Counted from the stretch's first letter, positions 6,912-31,017 are shown. The stretch: 32,000 nucleotides of DNA from Sinorhizobium meliloti (GCF_017876815.1 NZ_JAGIOS010000003.1:1260001-1292000), one strand, 5' to 3'. Notes: generated from the sequence alone by a model not told the origin. Numbers and translations: made by a program.

Positions 6912-6935
6912 AAAAAGCGCGCCACTAGCGCGTTT
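6912..6935 (-). terminator. Rho-independent-like terminator reading on the minus strand, directly outside the IS66-like left end
   Basis: On the minus strand the sequence is AAACGCGC-TAGTG-GCGCGCTTTTT. The GC-rich stem is CGCGC/GCGCG, extended by A-U and G-U pairs, with a 5-nt loop and a following T5 run. Confidence 0.4.
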
Positions 6936-7055
6936 GCTGGGTACGTGGGGCAAATCGGGTGGCGGGCCGGATGGGAGGATCTTGTGGGTTGTTTGTGCAG
7001 CGCGATTGCGTTGGCGCACGTTCGGGGCGACCATCGTCAGGAACGGAGGCCCAGG

Positions 7056-7375
7056 ATGCACGGGATCAACCTTGACGGCTTGAGTGAAGCAGAGCTGATC
7101 GAATTGCACGATGCGGTCGCCGATCGGCTCCACTTTCTGCATCAGCAGAAGACGGCGCATGCCTTGCTTGAACTGGCGATCGGCGAGCGCGTGGTGTTCG
7201 AAGACAATTACGGCCAGACGCAGCTGGAATCGTCATCCGCCGAAACCGCAAAACGGTGACGGTGCACGGCGACAATGGTCGGCAATGGAATGTCTCACCG
7301 CAGTTGCTGCGAAAGGAAAAGCGAACTGATGAAGGCCAGAGCGGCAAGCTGGTGCCGTTTTCGAGAAAGGCTTGA
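7056..7375 (+). pseudogene. Small conserved-looking hypothetical gene inside the IS66-like element, frameshifted near 7215-7227
   Basis: A GGAGG RBS precedes the ATG at 7056. The frame reads MHGINLDGLSEAELIELHDAVADRLHFLHQQKTAHALLELAIGERVVFEDNYGQTQ. The -1 frame continues GIVIRRNRKTVTVHGDNGRQWNVSPQLLRKEKRTDEGQSGKLVPFSRKA, with a stop at 7373-7375. It runs opposite to the transposase. Confidence 0.5.
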
Positions 7376-7376
7376 T

Positions 7377-9043: not shown

Positions 9044-9176
9044 GGCTGGAGGGAATCATGATTTCCCCACTCGGCGGAATCAGGCCAACGCACTTTGGAG
9101 TCAAGCCCGAGCATTATGCACAACTAACTGAAGGTCGCGCTCTGTCAGCGCGTGCCACCCAATTTGCCCCACGTAC

Positions 9177-11334: not shown

Positions 11335-11371
11335 TTTTCTCTCCGAGACGATTAGAGGAGATTTGCCCAAA

Positions 11372-14412: not shown

Positions 14413-14458
14413 GCTATTCCCCTCACGTCGATGTCTTGCAGCCGTTTTACAATTGCAA

Positions 14459-15185
14459 TTACTTCCCGAATTCGCGCCGCTCATGAAAGACCTCGACCGT
14501 CTCCAGGCCGTAGCTGCGTAGGACGCGTACACTTGATGTCGACGTCAGCCGCGTTTGGTCGCTCCAGGCCGGCAGCCATCGTATGCCAGCGTGTGTCGCC
14601 TTCCGGAACTTGCTCACCAGTTCGAGGCCGGGAACATCATATACCCCTTTCCGGCGATGCTTGTCCTGGACGGGCTCTGGGTCAGTATAGCGAATGCCCA
14701 AAGTCCGTGCGAAGGATTGGTGCAGAAATGAATTCCACGTTGAATTCGTTTCCGTCCGGTAGAACCGGAAAATCGCTGCCTCCGGAAACAGGAGAGGCAC
14801 GCTTGAGCCCAACCGTCAGGGGGCCCAAGGGAGGCGAGGGGAGAAGGAAATTCAAACTTAGGGCGGCGTCACGACGTTGTTCGGTGAGCGACGGATGCTG
14901 GCTTGATCGAAGCGAGATCTCGTTCGCCGAAATGACGTATGTGCGCGGGGCGCCGGGACCTGGCGATATCACTATTTCGCCGCGCACGCGCAGATTTGAA
15001 GAAAGACCGCGCGGTTCGACATAGACGCGCAGCACAGTGCCCTTACCTGCGATCAGCCTGACATCGTGAGCCACATTCTGGATCGCGCGCGTCGCTTCAA
15101 AGCCCAGAATCCGGAGCCCCGCTTGCACGGGGCCGGCGGATATCTTCCAGCGGCGGCGGGCTGTCGGAACGTCGATGAAAACCAT
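14459..15185 (-). pseudogene. Unknown gene between the catalase-like and LodA-like genes, apparently frameshifted near 14690-14730
   Basis: An AAGGGG RBS precedes the ATG at 15185. Frame A (167 aa, MVFIDVPTARRRWKISAGP...LIAGKGTVLRVYVEPRG...) stops at 14682. The +1 frame continues ...TLGIRYTDPEPVQDKHRRKGVYDVPGLELVSKFRK... to 14459, 46 nt before the LodA start. This fills an otherwise unexplained gap of about 270 nt. Confidence 0.45.
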
Positions 15186-15237: not shown

Positions 15238-16305
15238 TCAGCGCGGGCTCCGGGGTTCGACGGTTGGCACACCGTTGGTGTTGCGACGCAAATACGCGGA
15301 TGAACGATATGTGATCCGGCGAGAGTCAGCTATCGACCCCAATGGACGATTGGCTTCCGGCGTTCGCCACGGGTGTATTGAGATGTTGTCTCCGTAGATC
15401 GACTGTCCGATCCGGTTGATATCCTGTTGCTCGATGGTCAGTGTGCCGATCGCGTCGAACGGCGTTGGCCAGCGGCGAGTTGCTGCGTCGATCGGCGTCT
15501 CGCTCTCCATTGAAAAGCCCTGGACAGCAAACTCGAAAACCGCCTCGCCTGAAGAAAGGTGTTGCGCCAGATCAACCTTGAGAAAGTTCGGATCTGATCC
15601 TGCGGCTGGGGTCTGTTTCGGCGCGTCGAGTGGGCGCAGACGATACTTAACGATCGCTTCAGGTCCGCAAGCATAAGGCAGAACGCTCCAGTAGGTCGCG
15701 GTCAAGACACTTGCTTCCGGTTTTGCCATCTCGTCCAGAACGACTTTCGTTTCTGGGTGAGCAGCAAGGTAAGCCTCGATATCACCAAAGACTGCCGCTT
15801 CCGAAAAGGCGCAGAAGTCCTGACCGGTGTCGACGAAGAACCGATCATGGTTCTGCATCACCAGATCCGCCGTTCCGGCGTCCGGATCGTCGGCGTCCAG
15901 CGTGTCACCGTGCACCCCGAAAAGCTTGATGCCAATACCGAGCGTTGAATTTGCACTGTCCGGAGTGTTTGGGGCGGTATCGCTGGAGAACCGCACCCAT
16001 GCGGCAAATTCACTATGGGCGAAGAGGCCGTGTCTGAACCTGTCAGGGATGGCTGAGCTCATCCGAAGGCTCGCTCTCGCGACCCCATGGACCTTTCGAA
16101 AAACCGGTCTCGGAGCAGGCCTTTCCCCAGCGTCGATGAAATGCTTCTGAACGACATCGACGAAGACACGACGTGTTTCCTCGCGAAACGAAAGTTCGCA
16201 TCGTGGGTTTGACTGCGAGGTTTCGTTCTGCTGCGAAGCAGTTGATTGCTTGTTTGTGAGAAGCGCCTTCATGTCGGCGTGAAGTTCGGTAAGCGACCTA
16301 GCCAT
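15238..16305 (-). CDS. Catalase-related heme protein of the y4iL-like subfamily
   Basis: A GAGGA RBS precedes the ATG at 16305 (MARSLTELH...). The sequence reads RPVFRKVHGVARASL (distal His context), GLFAHSEFAAWVRFSS, LGIGIKLFGV, DLVMQNHDRFFV, and a C-terminal SRRITYRSSAYLRR (proximal Tyr context). The product is about 355 aa, shorter than true catalases. Confidence 0.8.
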   Translation of the reverse strand: MARSLTELHADMKALLTNKQSTASQQNETSQSNPRCELSFREETRRVFVDVVQKHFIDAGERPAPRPVFRKVHGVARASLRMSSAIPDRFRHGLFAHSEFAAWVRFSSDTAPNTPDSANSTLGIGIKLFGVHGDTLDADDPDAGTADLVMQNHDRFFVDTGQDFCAFSEAAVFGDIEAYLAAHPETKVVLDEMAKPEASVLTATYWSVLPYACGPEAIVKYRLRPLDAPKQTPAAGSDPNFLKVDLAQHLSSGEAVFEFAVQGFSMESETPIDAATRRWPTPFDAIGTLTIEQQDINRIGQSIYGDNISIHPWRTPEANRPLGSIADSRRITYRSSAYLRRNTNGVPTVEPRSPR

Positions 16306-17147
16306 TTCCTCAGCCCCTTCCGAGAATTGGACAATCGAAAGGCATGCGCATGCGCTGCGGCACTCAATATACGTTGGTAGAATTACCTTAAGAACGCTAG
16401 TAACGGTGGTATAAAACTCGGCGACAGTCAAGTGGGCTCTAATATTAAGCTGGCTTGCGCCGCGAGCCAATCTGGCGCGCGGCGGGGACGACCGGAGGAT
16501 TCGGAGCTTATCTTGCAAGCCCTTGAGAGCGTCTCTTGCGGACTGTACGGCACGCCCGAGGTGGTAGATCAGGCCGAAACCGAACAGATATTCATCGGCT
16601 TCGACAACAGAATGGCTCGATCTGCCGCAAAGCTACAGCCTCCATCCCAACGACATGATGACGATGATGCAAGGGTCAGAATGAGCTGAACGTGACCGCT
16701 CCCGCCGTTACGCCGGTTGTTGTTCACCCTATGCTAGAGTGTCAGCTACTCCAAAGGTTTAGTCCAAAGGAGGAAACTACTTTGAATTGCGCTTGACTGA
16801 TGTTATGCTAAATTAGTGATGAAAAACCCAAGGCTTGCAACGTACAGGTTTTTTGCTGCCGTAAATGCCTGACTCTCACCAGAATGGGTCGGGATTGCCC
16901 AGCGTAGTATGTGCTGAGATTGTTGGGGGTCATGCAGGTAGAAAAATGCAAGGACAAGATGGACGCTCCAGCTGTTTGGCGTCCGCCCCTCTTATGCGGT
17001 TGGTCGGTCGGAGGCTAAATTGCAATCGCGCTGCGCCCAAGCAAGACGGCTACAAACACACGCTCACGAAGTTTGCTCATTTCAGCAAAGGGCGTCCCGG
17101 TAAGGAAAATGAAGGTGACTTAGTTTCAATTCGGGAGGCTTTTGGAA

Positions 17148-17868
17148 ATGACCGATGGCATGCCTTTACCCTGGCCCTTTCCCTGGTCTGTCGCGCCAGC
17201 TTCGACGACCTTGTCGAAGGTGCGAGACGTGACGGGTTTTACGCAAGCAATGCAGGTCGATCCAGTCGGCATGGCCGGCCAGGGGTTCGTCGAGCAGATC
17301 CACGCCGAGGCAAACAAATGCAGCCAGAAATTCGGTAAGGATCTCCCTCCCTCCCTTAGCAGGATCCGAACTCTACCTCATCGAAGCGGTGTCGACCGGG
17401 CCGGCAGGGGGAGGTGGTGCATCAGCTGCACCCTATGTGGTAATCTATCCGCCTGAGTTCCTCTTCCTTCTGGACGTCGGATTGGAGCAACTGGTCGGTG
17501 GAAGTGTGCTGTGGAAACCTGCCGGTTACGGCGATCCCGGATTCCCCGAAAAGAATGAAGTCACACTCAGGAGTGTGACTTCGCGTTCCTCCTCGCACCT
17601 GATCTTCCCCCGCATTGCCGGCAGCCTGATGATCGGCATCAAGGAAGACGCGGACCGCGCGGCGGCGAAGCAAGCCCTTGCAGATTTCGGGCTGCAAGAC
17701 ATCGACATGGCCGGCACTTTCGCCACTGCGACATGCGCGCCCTTCGTGGAGCCCTCAGTATGTCGGGAGCTCGAACGCGATCTCGACTTCATCAAATACG
17801 CCGAGATGAATGGCGTCGTCCGCCTGATCGATTTCAGCCCGGGATGGATGGTGAAACGGCTGATCTAA
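17148..17868 (+). pseudogene. Unknown gene in two frames (17148-17456 and 17389-17868), joined across a (TCCC)3 tract
   Basis: A GGGAGG RBS lies 9 nt before the ATG at 17148. Frame 0 reads MTDGMPLPWPFPW...QKFGKDLPPS, and frame +1 reads LAGSELYLIEAVSTGPAGGGGASAAPYVVIYPPEF...VVRLIDFSPGWMVKRLI. The frame +1 segment has no start codon before a GTG at 17389. Removing one TCCC unit from 17344-17355 gives a single 238-aa ORF. Confidence 0.45.
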
Positions 17869-17929
17869 TCGTCGGTCGCCTGATTTAGTGAATCGGGAAT
17901 ATCAGGCAAAAACAGATGAGGCGAAACGA

Positions 17930-18145
17930 ATGAGTACTGCCCTGGAGACTTTCGAAGGCGTCGGTGGAACGATCGAAGAGGCGCTGGCGGCAGCGCATCG
18001 TCAGATACTTCCCCGAGAGGGCAGGGATTTTACGACCTCGCGAGTAGTCGACTGGGGGATGCAGTTCGGTGGCTTTGTTGGCGAGACACTTTTCTACGTA
18101 CGCGTAGTTGAGGACAGAGACGCATCTTTCAAGACGAGGACCTGA
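17930..18145 (+). CDS. Small protein, possibly dodecin-like
   Basis: The 71-aa ORF runs from ATG 17930 with a GAGG motif 9 nt upstream. It reads MSTALETFEGVGGTIEEALAAAHRQILPREGRDFTTSRVVDWGMQFGGFVGETLFYVRVV. The pattern loosely resembles dodecin (..vG.S..s.EdA...A......lr...v.e......G.i..y.v.v). The evidence is weak. Confidence 0.3.
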   Translation: MSTALETFEGVGGTIEEALAAAHRQILPREGRDFTTSRVVDWGMQFGGFVGETLFYVRVVEDRDASFKTRT

Positions 18146-18149
18146 CTGG

Positions 18150-18447
18150 CGGTCTTCATCACGGCTCTTGCGAAAGTGTACGTATGCTTCTTTGCCCATT
18201 GCTTTGACCTTGGTGGTGAGATCCAAGATGTCGGTGGTCAGTCGGAGAAGCTTGATTGGGGTATGGGGGGTAGAAAAATGCCGGAGTTGTGATCGCACAT
18301 CCTTTTTGCGCAGGAAGCAAGCGCACAGCGAAACGATCTGTTCCCTGGACTGCACACCAACGCACTGAATTTCGTAGCGGTCGGGCCTGACGTGACGTTG
18401 TTCATGTTTGATCCGGCCACAAACAAGCCGGAACTGCGTTTAGGCAT
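18150..18447 (-). pseudogene. Degenerate C-terminal remnant of a tyrosine recombinase
   Basis: The minus frame reads ...CFLRKKDVRSQLRHFSTPHTPIKLLRLTTDILDLTTKVKAMGKEAYVHF. This resembles the H-x-LRH...G.DI..iq..lGH....T..Y.H box of integrases, but it is badly eroded. No upstream catalytic Arg region is present. Confidence 0.3.
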
Positions 18448-18600
18448 CGAGACAGCGCTGAATGTTCTGGAGATTGTTCAAGACGTCAAAGACAAGCGGT
18501 GCATTTCGCAGCTCTCTGCACGAACAAAACTGCCGCCGCTCAAATATAGTAGATAAACTAGGCGTGCGATGAAGCTAAATGTTTTGAGCGAGCGGGGGGC

Positions 18601-19557
18601 ATGAAAACCTATTTTGTCGCTACAGGGCTGTTGTTGAGCGGTTGTACGGTTCACCCGTTGCCGGAGGGGGTATCCCATCTCAATACGAGACAGATTGTTA
18701 ATCAAATAAGGTGCGAGGCCCGAGAATCCATCATTACCGCCATTGGACTTTACCTAACGACGTTTAGCGACAAAGTGACGTACCAAGCCGGAAAAAATTT
18801 GCTAGACAAGGACATTCAAATATCAGAGCTCAAATTCGATACTCTTGACCACGATGCGCAGTTTAACATTAAAAAGTATATCCCCGCCGCAATTGCGTAT
18901 GATTTCACGTTTGACATGTCGGAGGGCGGCGAATTTTCAGCGGATGCCGGGCTTCTAAACACCTTCACAAGGGGAGTTGTGAATGTTAACTTTGGAGCTG
19001 GAAGTCAAAGACAACGGCAGACTATTAGAAACTTTAGTGTCAGCGATACGTTTGGAGATCTTCTAGGATACGAGGTTGCGAGCCTCTGTGGGCGAGATAA
19101 CTCGACACAAAGGGCCGCAAACTACAACTACCCAATTACCGGGAAGATAGGCCTCGATGAAGTGGTGAGGACGTTCGTCGACCTCAATGAGTACCACCAT
19201 CTTAAAACCAAGGAAAAGGATGCGGTCCCTGTGATGAGCGACACATTCCATTTCCAGACGACGATTGGCGGCTCGGTGGCGCCGAAGGTAACGCTCAGCC
19301 CAGTTGGCAGTGGACCCCATTTGTCCGAAGCGGGCCTAAGGCTGGCCGGCTCGAGAACCGACATACACACGGTCATCGTCGCTCTCTCCTTGGCGCCGAG
19401 CACAACAGAACAGATATTGCGACGTAAAGTTGATTTCCTCGGCGCCCCATCTTCGAGGGAATTTGGGAGGACACCGGCTGAGGTAAATGCGTTGGACGCC
19501 ATCGACACCCAGGTTCAACGCCAGATCATCACAAATCTTTCGGGACGCGTCCAATAG
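18601..19557 (+). CDS. Lipoprotein of unknown function
   Basis: This is a 318-aa ORF. Its signal peptide carries a lipobox, MKTYFVATGLLLSGC (L-L-S-G-C). The local region is more AT-rich than its surroundings. The sequence is rich in beta-strand-like segments, and I recognise no family. Confidence 0.75.
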   Translation: MKTYFVATGLLLSGCTVHPLPEGVSHLNTRQIVNQIRCEARESIITAIGLYLTTFSDKVTYQAGKNLLDKDIQISELKFDTLDHDAQFNIKKYIPAAIAYDFTFDMSEGGEFSADAGLLNTFTRGVVNVNFGAGSQRQRQTIRNFSVSDTFGDLLGYEVASLCGRDNSTQRAANYNYPITGKIGLDEVVRTFVDLNEYHHLKTKEKDAVPVMSDTFHFQTTIGGSVAPKVTLSPVGSGPHLSEAGLRLAGSRTDIHTVIVALSLAPSTTEQILRRKVDFLGAPSSREFGRTPAEVNALDAIDTQVQRQIITNLSGRVQ

Positions 19558-19575
19558 AACAGGGGAAATACGATC

Positions 19576-19908
19576 ATGATTAACGAATATGAGGGGACAG
19601 CGCCGGTTGCTGTTACCCTGGACACCGTGATCAACGCAGTAAAAGCTCTGGTTGAGATTGGAAAGGATCGTGAGTTCGCCGAGCTTTGCGAAAGGCAGGG
19701 CATGAAGGTGGTTGCGCAGCCAGAACTAGTCAACGCACTAAAGCGGTTTCTCTTTGACAACAAGGCCCATGAGACGAACGACGCCGCGATGGTGCTCGTG
19801 CGGTCCCCCCGTGGGTCCGGCAGCTGTTTTCCGCTTGCGATGACTGCGGAGGAAAGTGATAGTCTGGTGAATCTGATGAAGACTGCTCAGCCGCCTCTGG
19901 CGCGGTAG
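19576..19908 (+). CDS. Hypothetical 110-aa protein, co-oriented with and 18 nt downstream of the lipoprotein gene
   Basis: A GGGGAAA RBS-like stretch precedes the ATG at 19576. The composition looks plausible for a protein, with no recognisable motif. Confidence 0.55.
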   Translation: MINEYEGTAPVAVTLDTVINAVKALVEIGKDREFAELCERQGMKVVAQPELVNALKRFLFDNKAHETNDAAMVLVRSPRGSGSCFPLAMTAEESDSLVNLMKTAQPPLAR

Positions 19909-19956: not shown

Positions 19957-20124
19957 CTAGCTCCGCTCACTGCCGGCGCGGCAGCTGCTCGGGTAACGGC
20001 TTGCGGGAATGACGCCTGCGCTCGAAGCCCGAACTGTCGAGGAGCGTGCCGCCGCCTCGACGGCGTCAGCCTCCAGTTGCTCGCGCTGCAATTCGATCTG
20101 TTCGAAAACCCTTTCCCTTTCCAT
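19957..20124 (-). pseudogene. N-terminal remnant of an IS66-family TnpC-like transposase
   Basis: The 55-codon ORF reads MERERVFEQIELQREQLEADAVEAAARSS.... A shifted frame reads RRHSRKPLPEQLPRRQ. This resembles the QLEL..E.LEA ... RKPLPEHLPR segment of IS66 transposase N-termini. Confidence 0.35.
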
Positions 20125-20433
20125 CAAACTCACGCTGAACCCCCTCAGTTAAAGTCGCTTGCCGTCTGTATCACTGCAGGTCATGCCCCCCTTCGGGCTG
20201 CGACACAATGTTGACACACAACTATCCGGGCACGGTAGATTCTTCGATCGTCGTGTTTTCGCAACCGTAAGCGAGAAGACCTGTAGCTGATCTCATCGTC
20301 CTGGCGCTCGCGGCGCATCGAAAACGCTGATTTGCGCCAAAGGTCTTGGTTGCATTTCATTGGGGATATCACTCATTCTGATTGCAGCCGCGGAGCCAAG
20401 CATACAATAATCCCTCGACTCAACGAGGCAGAA

Positions 20434-23400
20434 ATGGGCGGCAAAAAGAAAAGCAAAACCAAGGTATCGCCGGAGCCGCGCAGATATGAAACTCCGCCCG
20501 CGGACGCAATCACGCTCCCTTCCTTGAAACGACATTCCGTGCTGCCCCTCGTCGATGTGGGAAGCCGACAGTTCGAGGAGATCTGCCGCGACCTAATGCG
20601 GCAAAGCTATCCGGATTTGCGCCCCGTAATGAAGAGACGAAGCGGGCAGCCGCAGTTCGGTGTCGACGTCGAAGGATTCAACGACCTGCAGGAGCCAGCG
20701 GTCGTTGTCTCGGCAAAATGCTACAAGGACATACAGCCCTGGGAGTTTCGGGCCTGGATCGAAGACTTCACCACGCACCTTGAGGGTCACTGGAAGGGAA
20801 AGGGCGTAAAAGAGTTCATCATCGCTGTATCGATCGAGCGAAACAACGACGATATGAACGATGCGGCGAGGGAACTCGCTCGCGTACTTGCCAGCAACAA
20901 CATCAAGTTCAAGATCTGGGACTCGGTCGAAATATCGGAAATGCTCGGAAAAGATCCGCGCTTGATCGACCGATATTTCAACGAAGCCTGGGTCAAGGCT
21001 CTTTCCGCTGATTTCGATGTAGGCACTTCGACTGCCGCAACCGGAGCCTTGGTCTCGGCGCGAGGTCCGACTGCGTCGCAGGGGGCGATCCTATCTCAGA
21101 TCGAAAGCCTCTACGTCGGCCCCCTCAACCAGATGCTCTCCGCCACCTTGGAAGACGCGGTCTCGGATCTTCGCCGCGGCAAACCGTCGAAGATAAAGCG
21201 GTGGTTGCAAGACGCCCGATCCGACTTCATCACATGGCAAGGCGCAGAGCCTGACCTCAAGGCGAAGGGGCTTCGCGCATCGGCAATGGTGATCCTGGGC
21301 GAGGGGGATCTCGATGGGGCCGAGCAGCTTCTCGATGAGGCGGACGCTTTTGTGCCACCGCCGGACCGAACGGCCCGAGCATACCTGATCAGAGCGCGAA
21401 GCGGCGGCGCGGCGGCCAGAAAATACTTGCAGGATCCGGACGGGCGCCGCGAGCGCGAATTGATGGCTGCGCTCCTGATCGAGGCTCGCCAGCCGAACAA
21501 GGCGCTCGAGCCACTTGCGCCGCTCATCGGTGACGAGGCCTCCGCGGAGGTGCTGCGGCTGCGCGCCATTGCCACCCTGTTAACGGGTGGGCGCCGATCA
21601 GAGGCTATTAATCTGGTAGTTTCGGCCACTACGAAGGAACCTGATTCGGCAATGGCGTTGTTTGCCCGTGGCGCGGTCCGGTTTGCCTGCGCGCTGGTCG
21701 ACGGGGTCGATCTGCAATTCGGCGGGGTGCCGAACCCGATCGGGAGGTCGTTGGTTCGCTCGACGCCGGAAGCCCGTACGCACCTGTCACATGCGGCTGC
21801 CGATTTCGACCGTCTCCTCGATACAGTGGAAGGCGACTTCAGGCGAGAAGTCGAAGTCTGGAAGCTGGCGGCATTGCTTCTCAATCCTGACACCAGAGCA
21901 GCGGGAAGATCGTTTGCCCGATCGTTGTTTGCTCGTGACGACTACGACCCGTCCGCAGTAGCGTGGGCACTGTTGAGCGGGCTGCCGCTGCGTCAAGGTC
22001 GGATCAAGAAAACACTTGGAGATGCCTTGCGCGAGGGGAAGGGAACTCCGGGCCATGTCGCCATCCTTGCGCTCATGGCAGCCGGCCCCAGCCACCCGGA
22101 GCGCGGGATGGCCGTGATCGAAAAGTTCGCCAGCATGTTCCCTGATGCCGGTGACTTCTTTGACCATTGGCGCGGTCAGTTCGCAACCAAGGATGGCGAA
22201 GACGCCGAAAGCTTCTCGGCGGTCATGCGACACACACTGGCTACCAAGGACGTCGGCCAGTTGTTCACATTCCTGACTACAGGCGACGTTCCCATCGAGA
22301 ACCTGCTCGCGGGTTCGGAGATGCTGGCATCGATGGACGCGTTCAGAGAGCTTGACGCTCTCCGGGGCAAACTCGCCCACCTTGGTTCCGGCCGCGCAGT
22401 CGAGCTTGCGGCGGTCGCCGCGCTGAACAACGGAAATCCGCGTGCTGCGATTTCAATCCTCAATTCCGCGCGCGCGGACGGCATCGACATGTCCAGGCGA
22501 CTGTCATACGTCCGCTTGAAATCGTGGGAGGCACTGGGCAGTCATCGGGAGCTAATAGACGACATTCAATCGCTGCTCAGAGAGCATGAAGATCCGCTTC
22601 TGCGGGACGAGCTCCTCAACGCCTACCTCCGGATCGGCTCTCTCGACGGAATTAGAGAGCAGGCGGAGTTCGTTCTGAAGCATGGCGAAATCGACCAGCG
22701 GAAGGCCGTTCAAGTCGCCCTTGCGCTTCGTTCGTATGCTCCGGAGATCGCAAGGCAGGCGCTCGAAGGAATTGGTACGGAGGGCCTCCCGGAGGATCTT
22801 TCCGGCGCCGTCCTCGAACTGTCTAGCAGGCTCGGTCTTGCCACGCTTCAGGACGAAATAATCCGGAAAATGGTCGCCAATTCGGCAAGCAAGGAGACCG
22901 TTCAACGATTCGACAGCGTCGAGGACGTCCTCAAGGTCCTGGAAGAGCACGCCAAGGAATACCGCTCACGTCTTGATCAATGGATGCACGGTCGGCTGCC
23001 TGCGGCCGCGGCAATGCGTGGCGATCCGAAAGACTACATTTCGCTATTCCTCGCTCAACCTGCGACGCGGCATAACCGGTTAGGAGACGCCTTGCCGATG
23101 ATGCTACTATCCGGAAAGCCGCATGACGCAGGCGCGCTGCCAGACGGAGAGCGTCCGGCGTTGCGCCTGGATCTCAGTGCTCTCCTGATTGCGGCTCGCT
23201 GCGAGTTGCTGGATGACCTCGAGCACTGTTTTCAGATTCATATTCCGGAGTCGCTTCCGGAAGTCCTCGTCCTAGTCACCGCAGAATTTCATCAGGTCCT
23301 GCCCCTGGTGGCCGGGGCTGTAAGGACCCTTGCGAGCGGCGACAGCGCGGTCGAAATCTGCCAGAGCCCTCCCGATGGGGTCATGGAGTTGTTCGCGTTC

Positions 23401-24684
23401 CAGTCGGGCACGGACGAGGAGCAGAAAGCTGCCGCAGCCCATGCGCTCCACGAGGCCTATCTCGCCGGGCATATTCTGAAGTCGCGGATGGATGAACTTC
23501 TTTCGATACTGAGTATGTCGTTGCCGTCCAAGCCGTCACAGGTCGACCGACTGCTTCTCGGCCGCGGCGCGGTCGTGGAGCTCGCGCAGCTTGAAGTACT
23601 CGAGCAACTCGCTCGCGGCTTCCCGCTGATAGTCTCGCAGAAAGACATCGACTGGCTTTCCGGGCAGTTGGTCGAGGCGGAAGACGAGCAGCGCATGCGG
23701 ACGATGCTGCTCGAGCTTACGAAGACAGTATCGGAGAAACTTGCAGCATCGACCTGGAAGACCGTGCTGCCCAAGCGGTCCGCCGAAAACATCGAACGGT
23801 CCAGAAATATGCCACCCCATCTGCGATGCCTGGTGGAGACGCTGCCCGAAGAAGAGGAGCTCGGGAAAACGCTCTTCTGGATCGAAGACAGGACGCTCTC
23901 CCAGCAGCCCATTGGCGGCTCCCTTACGATGCGGGAGATCTTGTCCCATCTATCTCGAAAGAACAGGCTGTCCCGCGCCCGCATCTCGAAGCTCCATGGG
24001 GAGCTCCGGCAGTGGGGTTACCTCTTCATGCCGATCGACATCGAGGATCTTGCGACGATAATCGAGGCCTCGCCGGTGGTCGATGGAGAGCTTGTCGAGA
24101 ATGCTCGTGTCTCGGAAATACGCCGGTGGTTTGCGCGAGACGTTCAGCATCTCATATATCTCGAGCAGAAAAGCGACGTCGACAAGCAGGGCAGGGTCGT
24201 CGGTGAGGTTCGAAGAACGCTGGACCTATCGGGCCTGTCGCGCGATCTTCTGGCGAGGATCTGGCGCTCGCAGGTCGGCACAGACTCGGATCGCGCGGCG
24301 CGGTCCAACTGGATATGGCAGAACCTCCGAGTGACGCATCTGCCTCCTCCTGTCGGGACCGGTGCCACTGAAGGGCTTCGTTCCATTGCTGCTCTGGCAG
24401 GCGTCCAGGCCTTCACCTTGCCTATCCAAGCGGAGCTGTACAGCGCAAGGCTCTCTTCCCGTGCCGATTCCGATGAAGCCGCCCCTTTGTTCCGAGATGA
24501 TTGCGCCCCCGGTTTCCGGGATGATCTCGCCCCCTGTTTAGTGGGGTCTGCAGGCGATGATTGTTGTCAGTTCATTCAGGCGAGGTGTCAAGCTTTGCGC
24601 GGTAGATTTCGGCGCAGACTATCGCCGCTCAATTCGATGCGGTGGGCATTGTGGACCAACCTGTCGAGTATGGCATCGGCGTAG
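20434..24684 (+). CDS. 5' portion of a giant gene of about 2047 codons, disrupted by IS21. Native sequence ends at 24461 and the last ~74 codons are read-through into the IS.
   Basis: A GAGG RBS lies 5 nt before the ATG at 20434. The N-terminal 200 aa resemble Mrr-like PD-(D/E)xK nucleases: FEEICRDLMRQSYPDL...QFGVDVEGFNDLQEPAVVVSAKCYKD...EFIIAVS...IKFKIWDSVEISEML. The remainder is long and Leu/Ala/Arg-rich, with a helical-repeat appearance. I found no GxxxxGK[ST] motif. Confidence 0.85.
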   Translation: MGGKKKSKTKVSPEPRRYETPPADAITLPSLKRHSVLPLVDVGSRQFEEICRDLMRQSYPDLRPVMKRRSGQPQFGVDVEGFNDLQEPAVVVSAKCYKDIQPWEFRAWIEDFTTHLEGHWKGKGVKEFIIAVSIERNNDDMNDAARELARVLASNNIKFKIWDSVEISEMLGKDPRLIDRYFNEAWVKALSADFDVGTSTAATGALVSARGPTASQGAILSQIESLYVGPLNQMLSATLEDAVSDLRRGKPSKIKRWLQDARSDFITWQGAEPDLKAKGLRASAMVILGEGDLDGAEQLLDEADAFVPPPDRTARAYLIRARSGGAAARKYLQDPDGRRERELMAALLIEARQPNKALEPLAPLIGDEASAEVLRLRAIATLLTGGRRSEAINLVVSATTKEPDSAMALFARGAVRFACALVDGVDLQFGGVPNPIGRSLVRSTPEARTHLSHAAADFDRLLDTVEGDFRREVEVWKLAALLLNPDTRAAGRSFARSLFARDDYDPSAVAWALLSGLPLRQGRIKKTLGDALREGKGTPGHVAILALMAAGPSHPERGMAVIEKFASMFPDAGDFFDHWRGQFATKDGEDAESFSAVMRHTLATKDVGQLFTFLTTGDVPIENLLAGSEMLASMDAFRELDALRGKLAHLGSGRAVELAAVAALNNGNPRAAISILNSARADGIDMSRRLSYVRLKSWEALGSHRELIDDIQSLLREHEDPLLRDELLNAYLRIGSLDGIREQAEFVLKHGEIDQRKAVQVALALRSYAPEIARQALEGIGTEGLPEDLSGAVLELSSRLGLATLQDEIIRKMVANSASKETVQRFDSVEDVLKVLEEHAKEYRSRLDQWMHGRLPAAAAMRGDPKDYISLFLAQPATRHNRLGDALPMMLLSGKPHDAGALPDGERPALRLDLSALLIAARCELLDDLEHCFQIHIPESLPEVLVLVTAEFHQVLPLVAGAVRTLASGDSAVEICQSPPDGVMELFAFQSGTDEEQKAAAAHALHEAYLAGHILKSRMDELLSILSMSLPSKPSQVDRLLLGRGAVVELAQLEVLEQLARGFPLIVSQKDIDWLSGQLVEAEDEQRMRTMLLELTKTVSEKLAASTWKTVLPKRSAENIERSRNMPPHLRCLVETLPEEEELGKTLFWIEDRTLSQQPIGGSLTMREILSHLSRKNRLSRARISKLHGELRQWGYLFMPIDIEDLATIIEASPVVDGELVENARVSEIRRWFARDVQHLIYLEQKSDVDKQGRVVGEVRRTLDLSGLSRDLLARIWRSQVGTDSDRAARSNWIWQNLRVTHLPPPVGTGATEGLRSIAALAGVQAFTLPIQAELYSARLSSRADSDEAAPLFRDDCAPGFRDDLAPCLVGSAGDDCCQFIQARCQALRGRFRRRLSPLNSMRWALWTNLSSMASA
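24453..24461. repeat. Left copy of the 9-bp direct repeat (CTCTTCCCG) flanking the IS21-family element
   Basis: It is identical to 27060-27068 and directly abuts the IS terminus TG. Confidence 0.9.
24462..24534. repeat. IS21 multiple terminal repeats at the istB-proximal end, three copies about 24 bp apart
   Basis: The repeats are TTCCGATGAAGCCGCCCC, TTCCGAGATGATTGCGCCCCC and TTCCGGGATGATCTCGCCCCC. They are the reverse-complement counterparts of the repeats at 26962-27056. Confidence 0.8.
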
Positions 24685-25325
24685 GTTGGGTCGCCAATGA
24701 CGCCGTGCCATGCGGACACGGGAAGTTGGCTGGTAATGATCGTTGATTTGCGTCCATAGCGATCTTCGAGGATTTCCAGCAGGTCGTGGCGGGCCTGTTC
24801 GTTGAGCGGCTCGAGCCCCCAATCATCCAGTATCAGGAGCTGAACATGGCCCAAGGTTCGTTGCAGGCGGGCGTAGCGGCCATCACCACGCGCGAGCGCA
24901 AGCTGGGCAAACAGCCTTGGGACACGCTGATAGAGAACTGAGCGATCGTCTCGGCAAGCCTTGTGGCCGAGAGCGCAAGCCAACCAACTCTTTCCGACAC
25001 CCGAGGGTCCGCAAATGGCCAGATTGTCATGGGCGTTGATCCAGTCGCCACCGAGCAGCTTCATGAAGAGAGCACGGTCGAGGCCGCGGTCGGCGCGATA
25101 GTCGACATCTTCTGGGGTGGCCTGGTGGCGAAGCTTGGCAAACCTGAGGCGTGCCGCAAGCTTCCGATCGTAACGGGAGCTCCACTCCCGTTCGAGCAGC
25201 AGTCCGAGCCATTCGGCGTGCGAGAGATGTTCGGCTTCGCCGTTGGCAACAAGTTCGCCAAAGGCCTTTGCCATGCCGGCCAGGCCCATGGCATTCAATT
25301 TATCCAGTGTTGGATGGGCAAGCAT
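24588..25325 (-). CDS. istB: IS21-family helper ATPase IstB
   Basis: The 245-aa ORF has a Walker A motif (GPSGVGKSWLACALG) and a Walker B motif (LLILDDWG). It follows istA after a 12-nt gap. Confidence 0.95.
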   Translation of the reverse strand: MLAHPTLDKLNAMGLAGMAKAFGELVANGEAEHLSHAEWLGLLLEREWSSRYDRKLAARLRFAKLRHQATPEDVDYRADRGLDRALFMKLLGGDWINAHDNLAICGPSGVGKSWLACALGHKACRDDRSVLYQRVPRLFAQLALARGDGRYARLQRTLGHVQLLILDDWGLEPLNEQARHDLLEILEDRYGRKSTIITSQLPVSAWHGVIGDPTYADAILDRLVHNAHRIELSGDSLRRNLPRKA

Positions 25326-25337
25326 CTTTCGTTCTCC

Positions 25338-26888
25338 TTAGTGGTAATAGCGAGGTCCGCGGATGTTGGCGTGATGGATCGGTTCATGCGGCGCCGCTCC
25401 ATTTGAGGCAGCCGTCCGGTCAAGGTGATTGTCGAGGATGGATCGCACCGAGCCATAGGTTCGTGCGCCAATCTCCAACGCACGGCCGCAAGCGGCATTG
25501 ACCCTGTCGCGGCCGAAGCTCTTGTTGAGGCGGATGATGCCGAGGCAAGCTCGAAAGCCCTGCTCGGGATGAGGCCTGTCGGCAAGAATGCGCTCGCACA
25601 ACAGCGCAACATCCGGCCCCATCGCAGAGGCTTCGCGTTGAATCCGTTCAATCGTCCAGTCGGCAAAGCGGCGATGCGCAGAGGGCATATGATCGGGGAT
25701 CGTCGTGTGCTTGCCGTTGCCGCTGGAGCGCCGGTGAGCGGCAATTCGCTCGCCCTTGTGGAAGATCTCGATCGTATTGGCGGTGATACGAGCCTCGACC
25801 TGCTCGCGGGCAAAGCGATAGGGAACGGAATAATAGTGCCGCTCGATCTCGACGTGATAATCCAGCCCGGCGCGCCGGATACGCCATTCGGCAAAGACAT
25901 AACGTTCGACAGGCAGCGGTCGCAAAGCCGGACGATCAAGCTCCTCGAACAATTGGCGGCGCGTGGCGCCGACACGGCGCAGAACGCGCTTATCATTGAG
26001 ATCATGGAGCAATTGGCCAATCGCCGCATTGACCTCGGCCAAACTATAGAAGATGCGATGGCGCAGCCGGCCCAACAGCCAACGTTCGACGATACGAACC
26101 GCAGCTTCCACTTTCGCCTTGTCCCGCGGGCGTCGCGGCCGCGTCGGCAAGACGGCGCTGCCATAATGGGCCGCCATCCCGCAATACGTCCGGTTGACCT
26201 GGGGATCGAAGTGGCAGGCCTTGATGATCGCTACCTTGGCATTGTCGGGAACCAGCAAGGCTGGCGCACCGCCAAAGAACTCCAGCGCCAGGATATGGCA
26301 TTCAATCCAGTCGGGAAGCGTCTCGCTCCAACGTGCCTGCGCATATGAAAGGCTGGATGCTCCCAGAACCGCCACGAACAGGTGCGCCTGCCGTGTCTTG
26401 CCGGACAGCCGATCAACGACAACCGTGACCGTGTCGCCGGCGTAGTCGACGAACAGCTTGTCGCCGGCCGCGTGATCCTGCCGCATCGTCACAGGCAACT
26501 TCATCGCCCAGCCGCGGTAGAGGTCACAGAAGCGACTGTAACGATAGCCCTCCGGATAACGGCTGATGTATTCGTCCCAAAGGATCTGCAGCGTCATATG
26601 CTTGCGCTTCAGCTCGCGGTGGACCTGCGTCCAGTCCGGCTCAGGGCTCCGACGATGACCCGTCTTCGTCCCGCCTGCCTTGTAAAGCGCCGCTTCCAGG
26701 ACTGCATCGCTGATGTCGTCACCCAACGGCCACGATAGCTCCGCAATGGCCGCACGCCGAAGCGTCTCGCGCACCGTCGATGGCGCAGCTCCAACCCGAA
26801 CCGCGATCGACTTGTGGCCAAGTCCTTGTTCGAAGCGATATCTCAATATCTCGCGGACACGCCGCATCTCCAGTCTCTCCGCAGGCAT
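25338..26888 (-). CDS. istA: IS21-family DDE transposase IstA
   Basis: The 516-aa ORF has an N-terminal HTH (MRRVREILRYRFEQGLGHKSIAVRVG). Integrase-core landmarks are LFVDYAGDT, LVPDNAKVAI and PRDKAKVE. Confidence 0.95.
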   Translation of the reverse strand: MPAERLEMRRVREILRYRFEQGLGHKSIAVRVGAAPSTVRETLRRAAIAELSWPLGDDISDAVLEAALYKAGGTKTGHRRSPEPDWTQVHRELKRKHMTLQILWDEYISRYPEGYRYSRFCDLYRGWAMKLPVTMRQDHAAGDKLFVDYAGDTVTVVVDRLSGKTRQAHLFVAVLGASSLSYAQARWSETLPDWIECHILALEFFGGAPALLVPDNAKVAIIKACHFDPQVNRTYCGMAAHYGSAVLPTRPRRPRDKAKVEAAVRIVERWLLGRLRHRIFYSLAEVNAAIGQLLHDLNDKRVLRRVGATRRQLFEELDRPALRPLPVERYVFAEWRIRRAGLDYHVEIERHYYSVPYRFAREQVEARITANTIEIFHKGERIAAHRRSSGNGKHTTIPDHMPSAHRRFADWTIERIQREASAMGPDVALLCERILADRPHPEQGFRACLGIIRLNKSFGRDRVNAACGRALEIGARTYGSVRSILDNHLDRTAASNGAAPHEPIHHANIRGPRYYH

Positions 26889-26961
26889 CCCGTTCCTTCC
26901 TCGTCACGTCGAAGGAAGAAACTTCACACCAGCAGAACACCCACGCCAGATGCTTTCCGAT

Positions 26962-27059
26962 GGGGGCGGCATCATCTCGGAATCAGGGGGCGACTATTTC
27001 TCGGAATTGGGGGGCGAGATCATTTCGGAATCAGGGGGCGGATTGCCTCGGAATTTGCA
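26962..27059. repeat. IS21 multiple terminal repeats at the istA-proximal end, four copies with about 24-bp period
   Basis: The repeats are GGGGGCGGCATCATCTCGGAATC, GGGGGCGACTATTTCTCGGAATT, GGGGGCGAGATCATTTCGGAATC and GGGGGCGGATTGCCTCGGAATT, followed by TGCA. Confidence 0.8.
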
Positions 27060-27068
27060 CTCTTCCCG
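27060..27068. repeat. Right copy of the 9-bp direct repeat (CTCTTCCCG)
   Basis: It is identical to 24453-24461 and lies in the same codon phase of the interrupted ORF. Confidence 0.9.
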
Positions 27069-29184
27069 CGCCAGCAAGGCCTACATGGAATGGGCGCTCT
27101 CGTCGGCAATCGGTCCGATGGTCGATGCGGACGCCGAGATCCTAGAGACGATCTCGGACATGACCGCAGCAATGCTGGCCCGTATCGTCGAACGGGATGA
27201 AGCCACGAAATCCGACTCCGACGGCGAGGAAATCGCCAAAGCATTTCGCCTGATTGTGCGGAGGTTCCTCGCTCTTCTGCCTGACGAGTGGGAGGAACGG
27301 GTCACGAGCCGACGTGACCTCAAGCGGACGCTCGGGATCGAACGCGTGATGCTCATTACCATCGATGGCAAGCTCCAGGTTTCGGTTCGAGTTCTGCAGG
27401 AGGCTATCGAGGGATGCCTGCAGAAGGGGACGAATCGCGCGGACATCAAGCTGTATGACGGGAAAACTAATGCCCGCCTGGAACTCGGCTCCGACGATGC
27501 TGATCTGCCGACTGCACTGCTCAAGATCGGAAAGCGGAAGCTGCCGCTCCATAGGAGCACTCTGGCACTCGTGCATCCAGTGCAAAACGTTCGCGAGCAG
27601 CTTCTGGCTGATCTGGAGGGTAAGGGCAGCGTGGGACGTCCATTCACCGCAGAGTATCTTGTCGCGTTAGGGAGCGAGGAGGATGTCGAAAAACGGGTGG
27701 CCGATTTCCACCATCGCTTGAGCTCTGACTTTGCGAGGCGCAAGGAACTCATGGCGGAAAGCCTGTCTAGGTCAGGAACTAGCCAGGTCTCGGATTTGGA
27801 CCTCCCGCCTGTCGGCGAGATGCTGAACTATCTCGGTCTGCCCGCAGAGTTTCGAGGATCGCCACATGAGTTGGCCGAGGCCTCGTTGAAGGCGCTGCGC
27901 GGCTCCCTGGGCATCGAACGGGCCATGTGCCGGGTATCAAGTCTTCCTGTCGAAATACCCAGGAACGAGATGGTCGAATTTGCGAAAGCAATTTCCGGCA
28001 AGGCCGACGACTGGCCCAGGGAAGAGTCAGTGCTATCCGCGCTCTTCTGGCTAATGTGCCAGACGGCGACCGGGCAGCCTGTCACGGACGACGAAGCGTG
28101 GTTGAAGCGCAGCATTACGAAGGAACGCGCAAAGCTGCTGACCACCTTCATTCGGCACAGCGCTCGACAAGCGCTAGAAAGTGACGAATGGAGGGCCCTG
28201 TCTCCCGATTTCGCTTTTTGCCTAATCTGGGTGCACGCCGACCAGCTTGCTCGAGCCTTCGCCTCGTCAAACATCGATCTTCCTCAATTTACAGCGTGGC
28301 TCGCGAGAAAATCCCGGTCCACGTTTTTCGATTTCGAGCGTGAGGCGATCTGGGACGACTGGGTAGTCAACATATCCTTGCAGCTTCCAGCTACCCTTCT
28401 TATCGCAAAGCTCGTCGGGCGTCTGTTGTCCGGCGGGGTTTCAATCCCTGAGCATTTGAAGGATCTACTGGGGCAGCAGGTGGGCGAACGATGGACTCCT
28501 TTCCCGGAGGCGATCGTTCCAACACCTGAGGGTGCGCCGGAGAACTTCTGGGCGGCTAAGGATCCCATGCCGCCCATGATCAAAGATGGCTGGCTTGGAG
28601 AAGATCATCCCTTTCAAGAGCGCGACCAGGAAAAGCTTCTGTCGCGCATTTTTGAAGAGGCTGAGGACGGCGACCCGGCTTTCTTCGCGTCGATGGTCAG
28701 TCTCCTGATCGACATCGACAAGGTGCAAGCCGAGCGTTTGGACTTAATTCTTGAGAGGCTTGATTTGGCACTCTCGGCGCCTGGGGCGAAATCGGAACCT
28801 AGCTACGGTTTGGTAACCGATCTCGTTGCGCAGGTGTTGGGTCGGAAAGGGGACCCGGAAGCGTTTGGAAGGTGGCTTCGAAAGGCAACCGAGGAGGGCG
28901 CGCAATTGAAGCCTCACGGCAGGCTGACCTTATCCGACGAACATGAAGGCGGTCGCGTTTTGGTCGCATTGCTCAACGCCATCTATATCTTCGCGAAATG
29001 CGGGCAGCATGAACTACCAGAACGGATACGGACGATCACAACGCATTTTAGAAGTGTCGTGGAGATTTGGCCGGCGTCGCTGCTACCGGTAATCGGTTGT
29101 CTCAACAGAATGGCGCAGGAACTCGGCGTGGACATTTCCAAACATGACATCCTGCCTGCGCTTCTCGATTTAAGAAGCCTCTGA
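27069..29184 (+). CDS. 3' portion (704 codons plus stop) of the IS21-disrupted giant gene
   Basis: The 26713-29184 frame is continuous with the left half once the IS and one repeat copy are removed (..ARLSS-R-ASKAYMEWALSS..). The sequence is helical and repeat-like with no recognisable catalytic motif. The part of the ORF upstream of 27069 is IS sequence. Confidence 0.85.
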
Positions 29185-29632: not shown

Positions 29633-29706
29633 GCTTTCAACGACGAAAGCTCGGAAATCGCTTGATAAGAATCTTATATACGTCAACGAAATACGAGATT
29701 GGCTTC

Positions 29707-31017
29707 ATGATATTTGCGCGAAGGGCTCTGCAGCGACGATTGAGAGAGCTGAGAGCTAAGATAGGCGACAGTGCGGTCGACGGCATCGTTGCTCGCCTCA
29801 ATCTACCCGGCCGGGACCGCGTCGCAGCAATGTGGGAAGTCGTTGTCCTGCATGGACTGGCGGAATGCGGCAACCTTGTTAGTGAGCAACCACTGCCTTC
29901 AGGTAGGCGCCCGGATGCTTGGTTCGACAACGGGCGCCTTAGGTTCACTGCCGATGTGACGACCGCCTCTGACGAAGGGTTGGACAAACAGAACCCCTAC
30001 TCGAAGCTCAGCGACCTCATCGAGCGAGCGAAAGGGAAACTGGGTTTGCCGATTGGTGGCGTTGACGTGCAGGTCCATTCCAGAACTCACGAAAGCTCGC
30101 GAGGGAAGCGCACCTTTCTCAAGCTCCCGCCCGTCGGGAGACTCGAGTCTTTTGTCCAAGACAATCTCATGCCTCGATTTCGAGAGCAACTCGACGCCGG
30201 GGAAGCGGTACTGCGGGCGTCCATCGACGACGATCAGCTTGGTATCGAAGTCGCCATTGATCCATCGAAGTCACCGTACAGTTCCGTCGGCTTCACCGCA
30301 TATAACCTTCCAACAATCAAGGATCGAAATCCGCTCTATAGCGCGCTTAAGGAAAAAGCAGAGCAGCTGCATGGCGCAGACGGTATCACCGGCGTGATAC
30401 TTGGAGATGGCGACTGCGCCGCACTGGCCGAACGAGAGGCCTCGCAGCACTACGTGTCAGCTGACGCGATCGCCAGAGAGTTGCTGCGTCAATATTCCTC
30501 GGTTAACTTCGTTCTCCTGCTTACCATCCGTGAGAAGCGGTGGCACTATTTCCCGCCGAATGATCCCAGACGCCGTGTCCACCCAATTTTGGTATGTAGG
30601 GAAGGGGATCCTCTGCGAACGGAACTGGAAGCGATATTCGGCGCGATGCTCGAACAATTCCCACCGCCGGTGATGATGCCAAAGAACGGGTCGCTGCGGG
30701 CGCGGGAAAAGGGCTTCGATTCCGGACATCATGGAGCATATCAGTTGGAAGGCTGCAAAATACGAATGAGCTCGCGGGAACTGATGGAGGTTCTCGCCGG
30801 GCTGCGAACGCTTGACGACAATGGGGCGCGTAATGTGGAAGCCAGCCGTCGTCTTCCATCGGCACCAAACCCGACGAAGCAGGCTTTTCTCCGCAAACTC
30901 CTAGACGGGCGGCTTCCGGTTCGCATCAGTGTTGATGAAACAGGCGAGAACGACAACGATGATTGGATCGAGTTTGAGTTCGGCGAGGCCGATGCGGCGA
31001 TAGCGCCCTTCGAGTGA
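29707..31017 (+). CDS. Hypothetical 436-aa protein downstream of the giant gene
   Basis: The ORF frame spans 29662-31017. The likely start is the ATG at 29707 (MIFARRALQRRLRELRAKI), and the RBS is weak. The N-terminal segment WEVVVLHGLAECG...GRRPDAWFDNGRLRFTADVTTASD has an E...PD...D-x-T arrangement that vaguely recalls PD-(D/E)xK folds. Confidence 0.65.
   Translation: MIFARRALQRRLRELRAKIGDSAVDGIVARLNLPGRDRVAAMWEVVVLHGLAECGNLVSEQPLPSGRRPDAWFDNGRLRFTADVTTASDEGLDKQNPYSKLSDLIERAKGKLGLPIGGVDVQVHSRTHESSRGKRTFLKLPPVGRLESFVQDNLMPRFREQLDAGEAVLRASIDDDQLGIEVAIDPSKSPYSSVGFTAYNLPTIKDRNPLYSALKEKAEQLHGADGITGVILGDGDCAALAEREASQHYVSADAIARELLRQYSSVNFVLLLTIREKRWHYFPPNDPRRRVHPILVCREGDPLRTELEAIFGAMLEQFPPPVMMPKNGSLRAREKGFDSGHHGAYQLEGCKIRMSSRELMEVLAGLRTLDDNGARNVEASRRLPSAPNPTKQAFLRKLLDGRLPVRISVDETGENDNDDWIEFEFGEADAAIAPFE

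Follow-up and report, generated by a model that had tools for sequence, protein, structure and literature searches.

Insertion sequences (IS) often inactivate accessory genes, and predicted defense genes are frequent casualties. A 32,000-nucleotide (nt) stretch of Sinorhizobium meliloti DNA (GCF_017876815.1, NZ_JAGIOS010000003.1:1260001-1292000; hereafter, the window) raises the question whether two long open reading frames (ORFs) that flank an IS21-family element are two genes or the severed parts of one and, in the latter case, what the intact gene encoded and what became of its function. We conclude, with high confidence, that a copy of an IS21-family element landed in codon 1343 of a predicted TGP-like counter-invader gene carried by an island of a pSymA-type megaplasmid, with probable loss of the full-length protein. 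TGP (TPR-GreA/B-C-PIN) here refers to a group of predicted conflict systems that is introduced below.

A giant reading frame split by an IS21-family element

The left ORF (20332-24684, plus strand) opens with TTG and comprises 1450 amino acids (aa), and the right ORF (26713-29184, plus strand) comprises 823 aa; both were taken from a mechanical ORF list. A preliminary description, made from the sequence alone, had read them as two halves of one gene. The element between them extends over 2598 bp, from the TG at 24462 to the CA that closes it at 27059, and has a perfect 9-bp duplication, CTCTTCCCG, on either side, where identity of two given 9-mers by chance has a probability of 4^-9 (about 4e-6). 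The left junction reads ...GGCT CTCTTCCCG followed, from 24462, by TGCCGATTCC..., and the right junction reads ...GGAATTTGCA up to 27059, followed by CTCTTCCCG CGCC.... Each copy of the repeat was found by script to lie in phase 2 of its respective ORF.

In silico excision of 24462-27068 joins 4028 nt to 2116 nt and yields a frame of 6144 nt (2047 codons and the terminal stop) that no internal stop interrupts. Translation across the restored junction gives ...AELYSARLSS-R-ASKAYMEWALSS..., and the pre-insertion (empty) site would carry ...GGCTCTCTTCCCGCGCC.... The restored gene starts with the ATG at 20434, which is preceded by GAGG at a distance of 5 nt and corresponds to the Met with which homologues begin. 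The remainder of both ORFs is translated IS ends: the left fragment runs into 74 IS-coded codons (24462-24684), and the right ORF, from which the native start is absent, begins with a stretch (26713-27059) that likewise lies inside the element. Gene callers now predict products of 1351, 1044 and 744 aa at this locus. The geometry set out in the preliminary description, namely the boundaries of the element, the equal codon phase of the repeats, the ATG with its ribosome-binding site, the unbroken joined frame, and the IS origin of the tail and the head, was thus reproduced at every point.

The single-gene reading is supported because more than 40 uninterrupted homologues, single proteins of about 2040-2115 aa, run through the junction ungapped. 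A search with the joined 2047-aa protein retrieved 45 clusters, about 40 of which consist of full-length proteins (2005-2134 aa) aligned over 98-100% of the query. The closest homologue (P0001 in our numbering; 2044 aa) is 77% identical, followed by a Rhizobium leguminosarum protein (P0002; 74% identity, 2045 aa) and others down to about 28% identity, and the hosts are mostly Hyphomicrobiales, including Neorhizobium, Pararhizobium, Agrobacterium, Martelella, Mesorhizobium, Microvirga and Methylobacterium. In an alignment of 34 sequences, nearly all homologues pass residue 1343 without a gap of their own, with conserved residues on either side of the junction, such as P1304 and W1351. Homologues regularly split into two genes at this residue were looked for and not found; of 17 other genomic loci, 15 have it as a single ORF of 1928-2115 aa, and at the remaining two, it ends at the end of the contig.

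The inserted element

The insertion is a genuine IS21-family element and looks active, in agreement with the initial assignment to this family; its coordinates, its istA and istB genes, and its identity to other copies all concur. As in other members of this family, which encode an IstA transposase and an IstB AAA+ helper, istA and istB are adjacent, in this order, on the same strand (here, the minus strand), the termini are TG...CA, several sub-terminal repeats are present at both ends, and the target duplication is short. In istA, the Mu-transpos_C_2 match is above the cut-off, while the rve match (7.8e-05; 23.3 bits of the 32.6 required) and the HTH-type matches at the N-terminus are below theirs. 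Each end contains three or four sub-terminal repeats of about 24 bp, those at the istA-proximal end spanning 26963-27054 and their inverted partners lying at 24473-24539. Multiple sub-terminal repeats are a hallmark of IS21-family ends.

The element is widespread in S. meliloti: it is 100% identical, end to end, to copies on pSmeSM11a, pSmeRU11c and the megaplasmids of strains SM11 and RU11/001, it is also present on pSmeSM11b and pRM41A, and 193 plasmid records match it. The termini TGCCGATTCCGA...TCGGAATTTGCA are common to six other copies. Comparison of these loci (L009-L014 in our numbering of loci) identified target duplications for five other copies, of 7 bp in four cases (CAAGGAT, CGACAGC, CGCTGAC and CCGATAT) and 8 bp in one (TGCACGAT), in contrast to the slightly longer duplication of 9 bp observed here. 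The range usually quoted for the IS21 family is 4-8 bp.

Age and spread of the insertion

The protein of 318 aa encoded just upstream of the giant gene is present on 11 contigs, six of which are 99.8-100% identical to positions 8.6-29.5 kb of the window and carry an identical IS junction (GCA_028888165.1, GCA_028895005.1, GCA_028895045.1, GCA_009601385.1, GCA_000287455.1 and sequencing run SRR494131). On three of these (L015-L017; contigs of 0.3-1.6 Mb), the sequence continues through the entire IS into the 3' half of the gene; one further contig breaks off within the IS after about 360 bp, as do two short-read contigs (L019 and L020) after 28-52 bp. The gene halves show no substitutions among these assemblies, and the IS differs at one base (26674).

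The preliminary description had spoken of a recent knock-out. Recency fits the perfect duplication, the absence of stops and frameshifts from both halves, and the complete identity of the IS to other copies, whereas a strain-private event is contradicted by the six further assemblies. The insertion is young yet lineage-wide: because six other assemblies carry the identical junction, it either predates the divergence of these near-clonal islands or has travelled with the island. A search with a 25-nt degenerate junction pattern found neither an empty nor another occupied site in species-representative genome contigs and metagenome contigs, and the flanks of the gene had no megablast match among plasmids and hence no empty-site allele there. 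No record of the exact truncated product was found.

Two further differences were observed among the islands. In GCA_028895005.1, an extra insertion of about 1 kb with a DDE_3 (IS630-type) transposase gene is present at window positions 19957-19960 (L016, 11361-12400); it is intergenic, just upstream of the giant gene, and represents a second IS hit at the locus. A 4-nt CTCC indel at 17343-17346, between or at the edge of two small ORFs (16865-17338 and 17389-17868), separates the window from L015, L017 and L019, the island being otherwise identical.

Predicted domain architecture of the intact protein

Two AlphaFold2 (AF2) models were built on an alignment of 39 sequences, one for residues 1-1200 (mean pLDDT 86.8) and one for residues 1050-2047 (mean pLDDT 86.0). 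Together with matches in homologues, the models suggest a protein that reads, from the N-terminus, as an Mrr-like fold, about 600 aa of TPR, an HTH domain, a PIN-like module, a GreA/B-C-like beta domain and a helical C-terminus (Table 1). The Pfam matches in question were transferred from more distant members: in phmmer comparisons, P0041-P0045 are full-length and collinear with the window protein (residues 43-1751, 15-1435 and similar ranges), and their matches map to its residues 40-99, 829-896, 911-973 and 1441-1469.

The N-terminal domain is modeled, at a pLDDT of about 80-93, as helix-strand-strand-strand-helix-strand-helix-strand, an order that fits the Mrr core. Conserved residues include E48, D78 (in QFGVDVEG) and S/Q93-x-K95 (VVVSAKCY; VVQCKCY in P0044), and E48, D78 and K95 would suit a catalytic role in agreement with the D...(E/Q)xK pattern of Mrr. 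Position 93, however, is occupied by Ser in the majority of members, Gln being confined to P0038 and P0044. The Mrr_cat and Mrr_cat_2 models score 18-19 bits at the N-termini of P0042 and P0044, below their cut-offs of 21-22, and sub-threshold matches also occur in 4 of 24 close members; a profile search of Protein Data Bank (PDB) sequences returned nothing meaningful for this domain.

Residues 216-815 are all-helical, mostly with a pLDDT above 90, and the top Foldseek matches are the TPR scaffolds Ctr9, IFT-A, Ski3 and APC/C. Matches to TPR proteins, at residues 316-420 and 668-778, were the sole PDB matches of the full-length profile, and TPR matches in Pfam were seen in homologues. A helical bundle follows at residues 829-873. 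Here, PF24407 (HTH_upst_double_PIN) is matched above the cut-off in P0043 (36.7 bits; its residues 816-883 map to 829-896 of the window protein) and P0044 (37.1 bits), while the window protein itself has no match to this model at E<=0.1.

Alternating strand-helix elements, in a pattern that fits the PIN fold, extend from residue 909 to about 1300. PF20698 (PIN-TPR-GreABC), to which the window protein has no match, scores 15-22 bits in P0042, P0043 and P0045, below its cut-off of 27.8, collinear with residues 911-973. In this module, D913 (LRLDLSALL, after a beta strand in the manner of PIN domains), R1153 and E1258 are invariant, and D1152 (WIEDR motif) is nearly so; altogether, D78, K95, D913, D1152 and E1258 are invariant or nearly so across members with 18-77% identity.

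Beyond the insertion point, residues 1438-1502 form a candidate permuted GreA/B-C-like domain, modeled as strand-strand-helix-strand-strand-strand-strand with a pLDDT of about 84-93. PF24388 (Permuted_GreAB-C) weakly matches residues 1326-1353 of P0044 (E 0.32), which correspond to residues 1441-1469 of the window protein, inside this beta domain, and among the close members, 1 of 24 matches the model (E 0.078). For the helices of the C-terminal region, Foldseek detected only weak, importin/transportin-type solenoid matches (E>=3.7e-3, TM about 0.14).

Table 1. Features of the interrupted gene, the inserted element and the predicted protein domains (coordinates in the window)
Feature	Coordinates	Strand	Evidence
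GAGG ribosome-binding site	20425..20428	+	sequence reading
5' gene part: codons 1-1342 and first two bases of codon 1343	20434..24461	+	excision and translation; collinear with full-length homologues
Residues 39-193, alpha/beta domain, putative Mrr-like restriction-endonuclease (PD-(D/E)xK) fold	20548..21012	+	AF2, motifs, sub-threshold homologue matches
Residues 216-815, TPR-type helical repeat array	21079..22878	+	PDB profile matches, AF2, Foldseek
Residues 829-896, helical domain aligned to PF24407 (HTH_upst_double_PIN)	22918..23121	+	homologue matches
Residues 905-1300, alpha/beta PIN-like module ("double PIN" region)	23146..24333	+	AF2, sub-threshold PF20698 in homologues
Left 9-bp target-site duplication copy	24453..24461		sequence
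IS21-family element of 2598 bp; its istA and istB run antisense to the giant gene	24462..27059	-	100% identity to plasmid copies
Sub-terminal repeats, istB-proximal end	24473..24539		inverted repeats I1-I4 pairing with opposite end
istB, 245 aa, AAA+ helper ATPase	24588..25325	-	Pfam IstB_IS21 1.8e-70; IstB in RefSeq copies
istA transposase, ORF of 516 aa (509 aa from internal start in RefSeq copies)	25338..26888	-	Pfam Mu-transpos_C_2 6.4e-20
Four sub-terminal repeats of ~24 bp and terminus, istA-proximal end	26962..27059		direct repeat families D1, D2, spacing 23-24 bp
Right 9-bp target-site duplication copy	27060..27068		sequence
3' gene part: last base of codon 1343, codons 1344-2047, stop	27069..29184	+	excision and translation, homologues, alignment
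Residues 1438-1502, small beta-rich domain with one helix, candidate permuted GreA/B-C-like	27352..27546	+	AF2 model 2, weak PF24388
Residues 1510-2047, helical C-terminal region	27568..29181	+	AF2 model 2

Comparison with TGP and Avs/STAND proteins

The closest described design is that of TGP, a predicted standalone conflict system directed at RNA polymerase (Kaur et al. 2021, PMC8195603). In the proposed layout, a variable N-terminal effector, for which a restriction-endonuclease fold is one option, is followed by TPR, GreA/B-C and a new PIN domain, and the protein has been proposed to dock on phage-hijacked RNA polymerase and to cleave transcripts, with the effector as a back-up (PMC8195603). 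The Escherichia coli TGP protein Agp, together with Bab, protects from phage T5, and the phage-induced response is lost upon mutation of GreA/B-C (bioRxiv 10.1101/2024.11.07.622273). GreA/B-C-dependent activity against phage has been demonstrated for Bab/Agp alone.

The window protein resembles TGP in being encoded by a standalone gene in a defense-island or mobile-element context, in its putative effector-type N-terminal domain and its long TPR array, and in a candidate PIN-like domain, related to PF20698 at a sub-threshold level, and a candidate GreA/B-C-like element. It differs in an extra HTH domain, a second PIN-like half and a helical C-terminus of about 540 aa. Moreover, its N-terminal restriction-endonuclease-like motifs are not swapped for other effectors but recur in the consensus of 24 distant members, and the protein falls below every Pfam threshold for TGP domains. 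We propose that the intact protein would work like a TGP-type protein, but we stop short of classifying it as one of them, given that the TGP domain order is not matched and that two of the domain assignments (PIN and GreA/B-C) are weak.

A second group, the Avs/STAND proteins, which combine a nuclease effector, an NTPase and a TPR sensor, resembles the window protein in that a long TPR array comes after an N-terminal domain of Mrr-like nuclease fold. Unlike these proteins, the window protein has no P-loop/STAND NTPase module detectable by Pfam, PADLOC or AF2, residues 216-815 being purely helical repeats, and the STAND/Avs reading was rejected on this ground.

Proposed function, consequence of the insertion and alternatives

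An IS21-family element common in S. meliloti transposed into codon 1343, with a 9-bp staggered cut giving rise to the 9-bp target duplication. In the scenario that we favor, the intact protein would have been a standalone counter-invader (anti-phage or anti-plasmid) protein related to TGP in design: the repeat and GreA/B-C-like parts may sense or dock onto a target perturbed by the invader, such as hijacked RNA polymerase, as proposed for TGP, whereupon the PIN and restriction-endonuclease-like domains would cut RNA or DNA. The full-length protein would no longer be made because the insertion splits the N-terminal two thirds (Mrr-like fold, TPR, HTH and PIN-like module) from the C-terminal third (GreA/B-C-like and helical parts), and the function was most likely abolished because the C-terminal third is conserved family-wide.

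Several points weigh against this interpretation. Significant matches to Pfam, PADLOC and NCBIfam are absent for the window protein and its close clade, and Foldseek searches with the whole AF2 models (model 1 against PDB and BFVD, model 2 against PDB) returned solely TPR/HEAT-type repeat proteins. The PIN, restriction-endonuclease and GreA/B-C assignments are accordingly putative, being drawn from sub-threshold homologue matches and the order of secondary-structure elements, and the nuclease activity of the restriction-endonuclease-like domain is uncertain because, in most members, the motif has Ser where Mrr has Gln/Glu. The order of domains differs as well, TPR, HTH, PIN module and GreA/B-C-like here versus TPR, GreA/B-C and PIN in TGP. 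The defense role is a prediction, and literature searches for the "double PIN" or permuted GreA/B-C architecture yielded no paper describing or testing it. Finally, loss of function is assumed, and the N-terminal fragment of 1343 aa keeps both nuclease-like modules, such that some activity is conceivable.

The alternative that fares best, albeit unlikely in our estimation, is that the giant protein is a non-immune scaffold or regulator, involved for example in transcription or plasmid biology, with inactive nuclease-like domains. Such a role would suit the helical repeat that makes up most of the protein, the Ser in the restriction-endonuclease motif, the lack of a PADLOC match and the sub-threshold PIN and GreA/B-C assignments. 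It is at odds with the patchy distribution of the family on plasmids and islands, beside known or predicted defense genes and mobile elements, with the preservation of the five (nearly) invariant residues listed above, and with an architecture common to a family whose Pfam models take their names from TGP conflict systems.

It is considerably less probable that the truncated N-terminal product (restriction-endonuclease fold, TPR, HTH and PIN plus the 74 IS-coded residues) is a functional allele maintained by selection. Its presence in at least seven assemblies, with no further damage to the gene halves and both nuclease-like modules kept, would be expected of such an allele. However, the near-identity of the island among the assemblies (99.8-100%) points to youth rather than selection as the cause of the undecayed state, the family-wide conservation of the C-terminal third implies a need for it, and the gene is full-length at 15 of 17 other loci, the two shorter ones ending at the contig end. 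Misplacement or collapse of a repeat during assembly is barely credible: copies of the IS are abundant in S. meliloti, and the short-read contigs L019 and L020 do break at them, but the target duplication is perfect, three large contigs run through the IS with the same junction, and three further contigs end just inside it, so that the identical junction in six other assemblies excludes an artefact. The notion of two naturally separate genes that merely flank an IS, for which one could cite a possible start codon for each ORF in the mechanical list, has a negligible probability and is refuted by the homologue alignment, the junction being spanned by single proteins, the apparent tail and head being IS sequence and the frame being continuous upon excision.

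Returning to the counter-invader interpretation, the preliminary description had suggested that the interrupted gene might be costly; this is a supposition that fits a predicted nuclease-bearing defense role. The loss may have been neutral, or it may have been favored by selection because it removed a nuclease that was costly or caused autoimmunity.

Replicon and island setting

Positions 1-6838 of the window match a megaplasmid of S. meliloti RU11/001 at 99.8% identity, and positions 1-9176 match pSymA of strain 1021 at about 96%. The remaining window has no plasmid match besides the IS copies and a few fragments of about 50-80 bp. To judge from these alignments, the giant gene is cargo of a strain-specific island on a pSymA-type megaplasmid; no tRNA gene or attachment site for the island was found within the window.

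The part shared with pSymA encodes a RES-domain toxin (76-558), a fragment of an AbiEii-like nucleotidyltransferase (3447-4007) and a tyrosine integrase (4548-5705, minus strand), and VapC and RelE/ParE toxins are additionally annotated by RefSeq in the matching region. The integrase shares 64% identity with one encoded 2 kb upstream of a homologue of the giant gene on a Pararhizobium plasmid, a similarity suggestive of related integrative islands. An ORF of 368 aa (7937-9043, minus strand), close to where the strain-specific region begins on the left, may be an IS66 remnant: its N-terminus is a coiled coil, and it weakly matches part of an IS66-family transposase model (NF033517; 26.5 bits, with a cut-off of 180). 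The region 9913-14532, all on the minus strand, looks like a quinoprotein amino-acid oxidase operon of the strain-specific island by sequence similarity: it contains a gene for a LodA-like L-lysine epsilon-oxidase (12469-14532; LodA_N 1.3e-70, LodA_C 1.2e-30), a FAD-binding LodB-like gene (11372-12472) and an unassigned ORF of 485 aa (9913-11370). Seven ORFs around the giant gene (15238-19908 and 29662-31017; 426, 157, 159, 156, 318, 110 and 451 aa) have no Pfam or PADLOC match, the five of them that were scanned against NCBIfam have no match there, and none of the seven has a counterpart next to homologues of the giant gene elsewhere.

The wider protein family and its gene neighborhoods

An exhaustive profile search with residues 815-1515 retrieved 2020 clusters (at the 50% identity level) at E<=1e-3, 823 of them at E<=1e-30. 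Most of these clusters consist of proteins of about 2000-2100 aa that are matched in the region of residues 800-1500 or so, and the C-terminal third is conserved throughout the family. Among 24 sampled distant members, PF24407 was matched in 16 (best E 8e-18), PF24388 in five (best E 3.2e-5) and PF20698, at a sub-threshold level, in three. The window protein appears as a full-length, collinear homologue of these PF24407- and PF24388-containing proteins of about 2000 aa, from which it differs in that its Hyphomicrobiales clade is too diverged for single-sequence scans; we assign it to the family on the strength of full-length homology, not of a direct PF24407 match. The names of the Pfam models ("HTH upstream of double PIN" and "Permuted GreAB-C") show that the curators recognized this architecture, which is absent from a 2020 eLife paper on NTP-dependent conflict systems.

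Genes of this family stand alone in mobile or defense islands and are patchily distributed on plasmids and islands. Their neighbors include a Gabija-like pair of OLD-TOPRIM and UvrD genes, a GAP1-N1/DO-GTPase/GASH/GAAD system, AbiEii, integrases, Tn3 and IS66, and no neighbor that could be a conserved partner is widely shared across the 18 loci compared. The only recurrent neighbor, observed at 4 of the 18 loci (L003, 16267-18138; L005, 5951-7852; L022; L024), encodes an FtsH-like protein (AAA and Peptidase_M41; about 620-638 aa, soluble-looking), which at some of these loci is accompanied by a protein of about 205 aa or by a DUF6634 protein. The FtsH-like gene may belong to the islands independently of the giant gene or act as its partner on occasion.

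Implications

A broader proposition, which we regard as speculative and rather improbable as a whole, is that this family of about 2000-aa proteins, with at least 2020 clusters at 50% identity, represents a hitherto unstudied immune system that consists of a single gene, differs from TGP in mechanism and monitors RNA polymerase. A giant TPR/helical scaffold would carry a DNase of restriction-endonuclease-like type, an RNase module with a double PIN and a permuted GreA/B-C domain. In that case, the IS21 insertion might reflect selection for the loss of a gene that causes autoimmunity or excludes plasmids.

The event described here is an ordinary IS knock-out, but its target, a representative of a large family of giant predicted immune proteins, is less ordinary, and we consider it a lead rather than a discovery. 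For annotation, the two fragments belong together as one IS-disrupted pseudogene, and the clean in-frame insertion supplies the exact recipe for the intact gene (deletion of 24462-27068). Beyond this locus, the disrupted gene is a pointer to a widespread family, for which no experimental study was found in the literature, of predicted nuclease-bearing conflict proteins of about 2000 aa.

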